Of a DNA stretch of 15,102 nucleotides, positions 1 to 1,545 are shown piece after piece. Source of the stretch: Candidatus Heimdallarchaeota archaeon. Lineage in GTDB: Archaea > Asgardarchaeota > Heimdallarchaeia > JABLTI01. The position numbers were made by a program, and so were the translations under genes. The stretch's first letter is position 1. The number at the start of each line of letters is the position of its first letter. The stretch spans positions 1-15,102 of the forward strand of contig JAHLVW010000091.1 of NCBI GenBank assembly GCA_019058275.1, written 5' to 3'. Below the pieces are notes generated by a model, which searched no databases, had not been told where the DNA came from, and saw only the letters and a program-made list of their open reading frames with translations.

Positions 1-443
1 GAATAATGGGATCAATACAAAAACCATCGAAAATAAAATTCGAACCAGTCATAATAATCTCGGTGAAAGCGAAAGGAAAACACGAAGGCGCACAGAAAGT
101 ACAAATAGCAACCGAAACAAGAAACGCACTAATGCATGGCTCGAAGAAAAGCATTCAGGACTTTGGCGAACGATACTTCGCAGGGGAATTCACATTTATC
201 ATTGAATTAGGGGAGGAACTAACCCAAGAAGAGCTAGGTTATCTCCTAAAGGCAATCCTCTACATGCCAGAGCTAGGACTGGGAGGAAGCGTCAATAATG
301 GTTCAGGAAGATTAGAACTACTGGAAATCATTCTCCAAGAAGTCATACGAACAAGGACAATTAACAAGAACGGGAAAATAATCCAAGAAGAAAAAGAACG
401 AAACCTTTGGAAGCAATTAGGGGAAGCGATGGAAGCATGGTGA
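1..443 (+). CDS. cas7: Cas7/Csm3-like RAMP protein, 5'-partial (frame open to the window edge)
   Basis: (I)MGSIQKPSKIKF resembles the Csm3/Cas7 'FG....S+i.F' motif. It is followed by ETRNAL, ERYFAGEFTFIIEL and the C-terminal RAMP glycine loop LGLGGSVNNGSGRLEL. The TGA stop at 441-443 overlaps the next gene's start. Confidence 0.85.
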   Translation, partial: IMGSIQKPSKIKFEPVIIISVKAKGKHEGAQKVQIATETRNALMHGSKKSIQDFGERYFAGEFTFIIELGEELTQEELGYLLKAILYMPELGLGGSVNNGSGRLELLEIILQEVIRTRTINKNGKIIQEEKERNLWKQLGEAMEAW

Positions 444-1201
444 ACACTGAGAAAAAATTATACACTCTAGAGGGGAAACTACTTTCACCTATTATTTCCA
501 CGAAATCCATTTACAAGAAGAAAGGATGCTGGATAAGAATGGTGGGAGAACTAGCAACCAACAAGAAACTAAAGAGAAGTTTCGTGGGGAAACTTGTGAA
601 GGGAGAGCGAAAAGCACCAACAATTCTTTACGCTTATCGAGGATTCGTAAGAGTAAGCTATGTTACTTCCTCAGAAACACAAGCACAAAAAAGGATCAAC
701 TATTTATTAGCACTAGACAATCTCGGAAACAATACAAATGATGGATTCGGAAAAATAAAATGGCTGAATTATAGAGTGGACCCCTTCCGAAAACAACCAG
801 CACCTCGAAAGTGGAAGAAACTGCAAATAAGAAAGGGATTAGGACCAAACTATCCTGAAGAACTAAAGAAGCTACTCATCGCTTTAATGTTACACGACTT
901 CGTTCATACAGAGAAACATCTCAGTAAAATCTACCAAGAAATAACAATAGAAAAGGAGGAAATAAGGGAAGCATGCAAGAACCATCACAACGGAGAAGAC
1001 AATGAGAATTGGTTACTCCCACTAGTAAAATACTATGACCAACTAGCATCACGAATCAGTCGAAAGAAACCGTTCAAAACACAATCAAGATATGATTATA
1101 ACAATGGGACCATAGACTTTGAGAAAATAAAAAGAGAAATAGAAGAAATCCAGATTCACCTTACAAACTTTACTCCTACATCTATCATTCAAAGGAATTA
1201 A
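437..1201 (+). CDS. Cas5-like RAMP fused to a Cas10-type HD nuclease (N-terminal part of a frameshifted gene); likely start ATG 437 rather than TTG 407
   Basis: First RAMP strand YTLEGKLLSPII and glycine loop LGNNTNDGFGKIKW. HD motifs follow: ALMLHDFVH, ACKNHH and YYDQLASRISR (cf. Cas10 'ALLHD...HH...AD.LAS...R'). ATG 437 overlaps the cas7 stop (ATGGTGA). Confidence 0.8.
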   Translation: MVNTEKKLYTLEGKLLSPIISTKSIYKKKGCWIRMVGELATNKKLKRSFVGKLVKGERKAPTILYAYRGFVRVSYVTSSETQAQKRINYLLALDNLGNNTNDGFGKIKWLNYRVDPFRKQPAPRKWKKLQIRKGLGPNYPEELKKLLIALMLHDFVHTEKHLSKIYQEITIEKEEIREACKNHHNGEDNENWLLPLVKYYDQLASRISRKKPFKTQSRYDYNNGTIDFEKIKREIEEIQIHLTNFTPTSIIQRN

Positions 1202-1545
1202 TGCGAATAGTAGAATCAATGGAGTTCGGGAAAAAATCACTAAGAAATCATTTACTGTTAATGGTTAATTTGGCAATAAATAGCTACTATAACAAATGGT
1301 TGGTTGTGAAAAATAGAAAAATAAGATTAGAAAAGAGAATTTCAGCATCGGTAAATGAAAGTGAAGAACACACAAGTGCCAAAGATGCTGAGATGCATCA
1401 TTCTTTGTCAATGAGTAAAACAAACATTCCTAGAAAACCCATTCAATTTGATGATAGGAAATGTACCATAAACAAGGAAAAGCTGACTAAAAAGAAGTCA
1501 GTAGAATATTACCCCTATTCCTCTTCTTCGCCTGCTAGCAGGTGA
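1123..1545 (+). pseudogene. C-terminal continuation of the Cas5-HD gene in the -1 frame, carrying the permuted His helix SLRNHLLLMVNLA
   Basis: The frame of ORF 1201..1545 is open from 1123 and reads NPDSPYKLYSYIYHSKELMRIVESMEFGKKSLRNHLLLMVNLAIN. One extra A near 1146-1148 would fuse it to the HD ORF (EE-NPDSPY). The part after ~1335 is less protein-like and overlaps the hairpin tract. Confidence 0.7.
1339..1545 (+). ncRNA. Candidate structured RNA (five consecutive stems) at the 3' end of the Cas5-HD gene
   Basis: Stem 1: ATTTCAGCATC 1339-1349 / GATGCTGAGAT 1384-1394. Stem 2: ACATTCCTA 1424-1432 / TAGGAAATGT 1455-1464. Stem 3: CTGACT 1483-1488 / AGTCAG 1496-1501. Stem 4: GAATA 1504-1508 / TATTC 1516-1520. 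Stem 5: TCGCCTGCTAGCAGGTGA 1528-1545. Expression is not shown by the sequence. Confidence 0.4.

Follow-up and report, generated by a model that had tools for sequence, protein, structure and literature searches.

Identity of the two genes

Two RAMP genes that stand at the end of a contig, with no CRISPR array beside them, raise the question of whether they encode a working nuclease and, if so, which RNA such a nuclease would use. The DNA analysed here (the window) is the whole of the 15.1-kb contig C86 (15,102 nucleotides, nt), from a 4.12-Mb, 118-contig metagenome-assembled genome (MAG) of an Asgard archaeon with 32% G+C. This genome is denoted G000, its contigs carry C-numbers, and related loci fetched for comparison carry L-numbers. 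Our analysis indicates that window 1-1545 is probably the 3' two-thirds of one allele of an ARAMP-type (Asgard RAMP) operon from a Heimdall-group Asgard archaeon. Among CRISPR derivatives, ARAMP and HRAMP, its counterpart in haloarchaea, are understood least, with RNA use and targets at issue. As assembled, the present copy is damaged, being cut by the contig end, frameshifted and left with an N-terminally eroded Cas7, and it would not provide a working minimal effector. The window brings no new class to light; its interest lies at the level of the family, in an HD fusion, a predicted protein contact and a candidate RNA. The features are as follows, where ORF1 and ORF2 denote the two open reading frames (ORFs).

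1-100, + strand: stretch identical to contig C82 and to locus L070, at the assembly break; the first mismatch is position 101
3-443, + strand: Cas7-type RAMP gene (ORF1), last 146 codons including the G-rich loop, from profiles and predicted fold
101-1516, + strand: divergent allele tract, ~89-91% identical to the sister allele, with near-identical flanks
437-1153, + strand: RAMP-HD gene (ORF2), codons 1-239, Cas5-like single RAMP and most of a Cas10-like HD domain
1154-1155, + strand: frameshift, a 1-nt deletion inside codon 240, from comparison with the sister allele and orthologues
1156-1545, + strand: remainder of the RAMP-HD gene in the shifted frame, with the last HD helix, H272 and a tail predicted to be disordered
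1338-1516, + strand: conserved structured element of ~180 nt overlapping the gene 3' end, from nhmmer, fold, covariation and tract edge

ORF1 is open at its 5' end, the contig start cutting into a gene whose full-length relatives encode 250-260 amino acids (aa), and its product shares 95% identity with the sister-allele protein of 250 aa. Its glycine loop is LGLGGSVNNGSGR. Full-length relatives scored 28-29 bits against Pfam RAMPs (cut-off 22.1), gave Csm3 matches in PADLOC, and are labelled RAMP or Csm3 by NCBI and JGI. A family model from a 42-row alignment (predicted local distance difference test, pLDDT, 84.9) found its best PDB matches in type VII Cas7 (8z4j_J, E 1e-10) and then in Csm3 of several type III-A complexes. 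By this model the ORF1 family is a diverged Cas7 homologue. No invariant Asp was present in the loop after strand 1 of the Cas7 alignment.

ORF2 begins at ATG 437, as do its homologues, and the two genes share 7 nt (ATGGTGA), which include the ORF1 stop (441-443). Aligned with an intact orthologue, P0002 (368 aa), codons 1-239 fall at 437-1153 with 78% identity, and codons 241-353 at 1156-1494, in another frame, with 67% identity. The glycine loop, LGNNTNDGFGKIKW, contains the family-invariant G97, G105 and W109. The HD motifs are at 893-898 (H153-D154), 983-988 (H183-H184) and 1037-1039 (D201), and past the frameshift the sequence SLRNH carries H272 at 1249-1251. Across an alignment of 50 sequences, H153, D154, K164, H184, D201 and H272 were invariant, and H161 and H183 were conserved in at least 90% of the homologues. 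The window copy retains every one of these HD residues, H272 lying beyond the frameshift. As isolated fragments, the window genes matched profiles weakly (RAMPs 17.5 bits, HD 13 bits; Csf2, Csf3, Cmr1 and Csm3/4 at E 1e-2 to 1e-4).

A model of the RAMP-HD family, built from the 50-row alignment, reached pLDDT 83.7 over residues 1-300, with a disordered tail, and was compared exhaustively with 48,161 chains. Residues 140-323 matched the HD domain of Cas10/Csm1 (6ifk_A, Z 8.5, root-mean-square deviation 3.8, 151 residues aligned; 6mua_A, Z 8.3), which provided both of the top two matches. Residues 6-123 matched Csm4 (9g9a_G, Z 8.2) and type IV Cas5/Csf3 (7xfz_B, Z 7.5), and weak typeIV_Cas5/Csf3 profile matches were also obtained for ORF2. 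On the predicted fold, the RAMP part is a diverged, reduced Cas5 homologue with a single RAMP domain. The motifs run with the HD dyad first and the invariant His last, as in the permuted HD of Cas10, and the C-terminal domain appears to be an HD domain of this type and a putative nuclease. The family model ends after the HD domain and has no Palm/GGDD part.

A preliminary description, made from the sequence before these analyses, was largely right on identity. It had recognized two coupled genes, each with a RAMP glycine loop, and had followed the second through HD/HH/D motifs and, past a frameshift, to an SLxNH helix; all of these were recovered. Its reading of the pair as Cas7 plus a Cas5 fused to a Cas10-type permuted HD, to be checked by structure prediction, agrees with the models, in which the ORF1 family resembles type VII Cas7 and Csm3, and the ORF2 family Csm4/Csf3 followed by the Csm1 HD. 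Neither a Palm/GGDD domain, nor Cas6, nor an array was found after the module in the window, again as described. For the first gene the Cas7-type RAMP assignment stood, but only a fragment, the last 146 codons, is present.

Alleles, frameshift and state of this copy

The relationship between the window and its sister allele was established with L070, a 2.26-Mb contig of a near-identical public assembly, which carries the sister allele. L070 was 100% identical to C82 across 7.2 kb. It was also identical to window 1-100 and 1517-15102, except for one single-nucleotide polymorphism at 1713, and ~89-91% identical to window 101-1516. Because L070 matches C82 and both flanks of C86, these two contigs are two alleles of one locus, the assembly having broken at the bubble between them. 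The same comparison ruled out C82 and C86 (overlap 895 nt, 91% identity) as two paralogues.

At the frameshift, the letters AT alone represent codon 240 between CAG 1151-1153 and TCA 1156-1158, the window reading CAG-ATTCA versus CAGTATTCA in the sister allele. This 1-nt deletion puts the last active-site His, H272, out of frame with the remainder of the protein; in the sister allele the second gene is intact and encodes 368 aa. Ratios of nonsynonymous to synonymous substitution (dN/dS) between the alleles were 0.11 for Cas7, 0.14 for 437-1153, 0.10 for 1156-1335 and 0.48 for the tail (1336-1542). These values indicate that purifying selection acted on either side of the frameshift, and the deletion would therefore be either very recent or an assembly error. 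An error in a minor-strain bubble, with the allele coding in truth for an intact 368-aa Cas5-HD protein, is possible, if less than likely. It would account for the dN/dS of 0.10 downstream of the shift, read in the shifted frame, for the retention of every catalytic residue, and for a tract that is a strain variant assembled beside a contig break. However, the site (CAGATTCA) is no homopolymer, stops occur in several other module copies of the genome, and the high-quality 2.26-Mb contig itself shows the N-terminal truncation of Cas7 at this locus.

This truncation affects the locus in both alleles: the first 27 codons (strand β1), present in the orthologue L064, are missing. An AbrB-like gene that lies upstream in the orthologues L064 and L069 is missing as well. 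No close orthologue of the window allele was found in the same-genus genome G123. The earlier proposal of a stripped-down nuclease complex thus fails for this copy, whose second gene is frameshifted and whose Cas7 lacks its first β-strand.

A conserved structured element at the 3' end

Over its last ~200 nt the second gene shows conservation of the nucleotide sequence itself, although the tail encoded there is predicted to be disordered. A nhmmer profile built from eight G000 copies placed the element at window 1318-1515 (E 1e-35) and at the gene 3' end in ~30 loci of other MAGs. The ORF stop varies in position relative to the element, the copies differ by 1-nt indels, and the tail dN/dS is 0.48; for these reasons the element would not be conserved as protein.

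Folding of the window element gave -42.5 kcal/mol, compared with -25.8 ± 3.6 for shuffled sequences (z -4.6). The fold reproduced the consensus, in which a long-range stem P1 (1339-1353 with 1377-1394) encloses hairpin P2 and a terminal hairpin (1482-1488 with 1496-1502) follows. Covariation was tested on a 22-row alignment, with slid partners and 500 shuffles as controls. Pairing was found in 77% of cells, versus 32-37% with partners slid; 20 pairs changed on both sides, versus 7-12 in controls, and the covariation score was 0.285 versus 0.06-0.10. None of the 500 shuffles attained the observed values. Helices 1, 2 and 5 paired in 88-99% of cells, the stem sequence of the terminal hairpin differed in nearly every copy, and the G-U pairs fitted the sense strand only. 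In the middle of the element, no helix other than P1, P2, P3 and the terminal hairpin was well supported.

The element ends (1515) at the right edge of the divergent allele tract (1516), and the exchangeable unit would therefore end there. A 37-nt insertion between the terminal hairpin and AGGTGATA at 1539-1546 was considered and ruled out, the stretch being flank shared with the sister allele. Taken together, the conservation, fold and covariation suggest that the element could be an RNA partner of the Cas7/Cas5-HD module. For the 76 nt at and after the element 3' end in all eight copies, no match was found elsewhere in the genome.

Copies of the element also occur apart from complete modules. 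Two solo copies are present in G000, at C11:40868-41069 and C11:57223-57420, and 3'-only matches were found besides in G025, G058, G102, G119, G136, G139, G062, G009 and G031. Partial matches standing apart from any other piece of the same gene are nearly all 3'-only, with one clear 5'-only case (G126:C385, query 5-91). The 5'-truncated remnants consist of the last 50-100 codons of the Cas5-HD gene and the element only; one runs up to the start codon of an RFC-like gene, and another borders an antisense tRNA-like sequence. In many loci, a gene on the same strand (for example rpoE, RFC or that of a Zn-ribbon protein) begins 6-9 nt past a conserved Shine-Dalgarno-like motif, AGGTGAT/GGAGAC, which follows the terminal hairpin. 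A tRNA-like sequence, recognized by eye, begins there in two loci; ARAGORN, with or without introns, called neither of the two.

L032:9100-9140, L039, L040, L049 and L059:1010-1045, same strand: ORF start after the motif
L016:11330-11350 and L035:7080-7100: tRNA-like start instead, recognized by eye

Predicted complex and proposed mechanism

A complex of Cas7 with residues 1-300 of the second protein was predicted with an interface score (ipSAE) of 0.63, versus 0.00 for the best of three controls. The mark used for ipSAE was reached by 58 of 80 solved complexes and by 2 of 110 mismatched pairs. Runs agreed in at least 71% of contacts, partner pLDDT was at least 74, and the interface was RAMP to RAMP. 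This pass may be partly memory of known structures, because Csm3-Csm4 complexes have been solved.

On this basis, an intact operon would supply a Cas7-like backbone subunit and a translationally coupled Cas5-HD subunit of ~370 aa. By analogy with class 1 effectors, several copies of Cas7 and one of Cas5-HD would assemble on an RNA, and the HD domain, the sole predicted nuclease, would cut nucleic acid at sites specified by that RNA. The best candidate for the RNA would be the ~180-nt same-strand element at 1338-1516, overlapping the end of the second gene. That the module binds RNA and is guided by it, what its nuclease cuts and which biological role it plays are matters of inference only.

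A more speculative extension, which we consider unlikely, makes ARAMP a class 1 counterpart of OMEGA (TnpB/IscB) systems. The module would load the RNA from its own 3' end, and the HD domain would cut DNA specified at or beyond the element edge; the target could be the empty allele. The module would thereby retain or home cassettes centred on LAGLIDADG-HTH (helix-turn-helix) and Cas1-like genes, a role in which TnpB could take its place. As in OMEGA systems, the nuclease gene shares its 3' end with a structured RNA-like element that stops at the unit edge, and in G000 TnpB genes and RAMP modules share a head-to-head position beside one LAGLIDADG-HTH family. However, the proteins are unrelated and no guide or target was identified for the module, and the likeness is one of layout only.

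Comparison with known systems

ARAMP systems are said to have been set apart as CRISPR derivatives by Makarova, Wolf, Shmakov, Liu, Li and Koonin in 2020 (CRISPR J 3:156). The preliminary description had named this class. In the literature ARAMP does denote Cas5/Cas7 modules of Asgard archaea that derive from type III and lack an array; a distinct Cas1 accompanies most loci, and PD-(D/E)xK or HNH nucleases accompany many, with no mechanism established (PMC8730458, PMC12669027). The present module fits this class: it is restricted to Asgard archaea, its Cas7 and Cas5 are diverged and type III-like, there is no array at the locus, and among its relatives L066 has a Cas1-like gene and a PD-(D/E)xK protein. 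It differs in that this locus consists of two RAMP genes only, damaged and with no Cas1-like gene (Cas1 is not obligatory in the class), and in that the nucleases usual for the class are, according to reviews, HNH and PD-(D/E)xK rather than HD.

Several observations weigh against the assignment. Identity with ARAMP is by described features alone, and the Cas1-like, AbrB-like and LAGLIDADG genes of other copies are absent at this locus. The Z-score of the HD match to Cas10 is middling for a helical domain, and a search of PDB chains by sequence with the RAMP-HD profile returned chance matches only. For the element, no guide segment or target was identified.

Relative to type III (Csm/Cmr) systems, the module shares the Cas7 fold, a Cas5 RAMP with a G-rich loop, an HD domain that best matches the N-terminal HD of Cas10/Csm1 and the predicted Cas7-Cas5 contact, but it has no Cas10 Palm/GGDD domain, Cas11, Cas6 or array, and its HD is fused to a one-domain Cas5. 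Type VII pairs the β-CASP nuclease Cas14 with Cas7 and Cas5 (PMC12669027; PDB 8z4j/8yhe). Its Cas7 is the closest solved structure to that of the module (E 1e-10), and it too is a reduced archaeal derivative of type III whose nuclease is tethered through a Cas10 remnant. In the module, however, the nuclease would be HD and not β-CASP, the Cas10 remnant is the N-terminal HD and not the C-terminal domain, and there is no array; no Cas14 β-CASP gene was found in the window or in related loci. Subtype IV-C, in which Csf1 has a Cas10-like HD domain (PMC8730458), is likewise a class 1 module in reduced form, with Cas7, Cas5 and a retained HD nuclease of Cas10 type, but there the HD is on the large subunit Csf1, and here on Cas5. 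NCBIfam Csf2 and Csf3 scored 17 and 14 bits, below the type IV cut-offs of 130 and 140.

Alternative explanations

The element may be a cis-acting end piece of the cassette and not a guide. It could be a processing or stability structure which, with the Shine-Dalgarno-like AGGTGAT, keeps the downstream gene expressed, or the end at which a mobile unit recombines; solo copies would persist because the downstream gene depends on them. The same-strand genes 6-9 nt after AGGTGAT/GGAGAC in many loci, the two tRNA-like sequences seen by eye (uncalled by ARAGORN) that begin there, the recurrence of 3'-only fragments in several genomes, the exact stop of the divergent tract at the element 3' end, and the differing contexts of orthologues would all fit. 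However, a leader or terminator needs no structure of ~180 nt conserved across clades with compensatory changes, and the motif is also present where a tRNA-like sequence or an antisense gene comes next. With regard to mobility, no transposase or terminal inverted repeats were seen, and the C88-type locus lies upstream of rpoE at the same place in different MAGs and would therefore not be recently mobile. On balance, a cis-acting role seems rather improbable.

Decidedly unlikely, in our view, is that the module is an ordinary CRISPR effector without an array of its own, loading CRISPR RNAs in trans, the 3' element not being its guide. The genome does carry canonical Cas1 (C26, C76) and arrays (C26, C68, C4), so that a non-CRISPR RNA, offered in the preliminary description as the alternative to action in trans, need not be required. 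Moreover, a single 37-nt repeat lies at the C25 contig end, ~550 nt beyond the LAGLIDADG gene of the C25 module copy, an array stands 5.5 kb from the module copy in L057, and most type III systems borrow Cas6 in trans (PMC12669027). Yet most module copies have no array within 6-8 kb, the module keeps a conserved, covarying element of its own, and no Cas10 was detected by TIGR02578 and TIGR02577 in a genome that is 92.8% complete. Very improbable, finally, is a housekeeping RNA-processing complex unrelated to defence or mobile elements, with its Cas likeness due to shared RAMP ancestry. Several copies do lie directly upstream of rpoE-spt4, aEF-2, RFC and tRNA endonuclease genes on the same strand. 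Against this role stand the patchy distribution (14 of 151 genomes sampled across the phylum, with 0 of 13 and 0 of 26 for large families in that sample), the numerous diverged and decaying paralogues per genome, and the linkage to Cas1-like, PD-(D/E)xK, LAGLIDADG and TnpB-bearing cassettes.

The ARAMP-type reading, with the 3' element as candidate RNA, makes the question of RNA use testable at the level of the family, since a specific RNA is named and intact loci are at hand in L064, L069 and C88 (C88:2017-3910).

Family spread and gene neighbourhoods

Searches with ORF2 returned 112 homologues and those with the Cas7 protein 92, almost all of them from sources named as Heimdall or other Asgard archaea (Heimdall-, Hod-, Odin-, Thor-, Hermod- and Promethearchaeota). 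Where the second protein was found in the sampled genomes, it often occupied 6-12 places per genome. G000 itself has six module loci (this locus, C88, C89, C25, C105 and C11) as well as the two 3'-only fragments.

The usual layout elsewhere places an AbrB/MazE-like gene and a ~530-aa LAGLIDADG+HTH gene head to head with Cas7 and Cas5-HD. In L066 the order is LAGLIDADG-HTH, AbrB-like, Cas7 and Cas5-HD, followed by proteins of 248 aa, 552 aa and 230 aa and the PD-(D/E)xK protein. Of these, the 552-aa protein shares 35% identity (E 1e-100) with a G000 family of 619 aa, and a member of that family on C48 matches Pfam Cas1 weakly.

The ~530-aa LAGLIDADG_3 + HTH family is highly expanded in G000, at ~22 places. 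Ten neighbourhoods pair a member head to head with TnpB/Cas12f-like genes, four with RAMP modules and four with a ~720-aa family of unknown function; proteins of 253 aa, 619 aa (Cas1-like) and ~250 aa often come next.

C89:101683-103254, C16:34610-36160, C88:82-1665 and C25:10792-12318: examples of LAGLIDADG_3 + HTH genes

Upstream region and arrays

The 6 kb upstream of the module, read from L070, encode an Lhr-type helicase and small ORFs. The preliminary description had asked whether a type III operon lay there; this stretch holds no cas1, cas4, cas6, cas10 or ordinary array, no cas1 occurs at this locus in the 6 kb to either side, and no Cas6 was called near related loci. An array search found none in the window, and none in 8.2 kb of the sister allele save a two-copy repeat of 29 nt. 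The two copies of this perfect direct repeat, GTAAGCAGCTATATAAGTGAAAAATACAG, are separated by a spacer of 36 nt, which gives the pair CRISPR-like dimensions; it lies 292 nt before the sister-allele cas7. A mini-array as a general feature of the module was rejected, the 29-nt repeat being present neither elsewhere in the genome nor in the other fetched ARAMP loci. The ordinary arrays of G000 have repeats of 30 nt and 37 nt, both ending in ATTGAAAT.

L070:5616-5709 (= C82:1497-1590): 29-nt repeat pair, upstream of the sister-allele cas7 and outside the window
C26:16253-16953, C68:4006-4447, C4:3-270, C4:2202-2465, C25:12945, C42:56 and C91:32-145: array and repeat sites in G000

Remaining content of the window

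Beyond the module, the window codes for surface proteins and for ORFs without a family. No cas gene, CRISPR array, tRNA or Rfam match was found elsewhere in it, and zero Rfam families matched in the window at E up to 1. The predicted surface proteins comprise two with TSP3 calcium-binding repeats and FN3 domains (1190 aa and 440+ aa) and a 677-aa LVIVD β-propeller.

1814-5386, 9578-11611 and 13757-15100, - strand: three large predicted surface proteins, TSP3/FN3 or LVIVD
7570-8490 and 11943-12800, + strand: two paralogous proteins of ~300 aa, no Pfam family

LVIVD or SBBP proteins also adjoin the module at the orthologous loci L001, L064 and L065. The two ~300-aa paralogues share an N-terminal motif around 'IDDKLIGC' / 'IDNTTLGC', and a third, split into 155 + 145 aa, is found at L070:4071-5036, upstream of the sister-allele module. 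A 125-aa ORF at window 5528-5905 likewise has a paralogue upstream of the sister-allele module.

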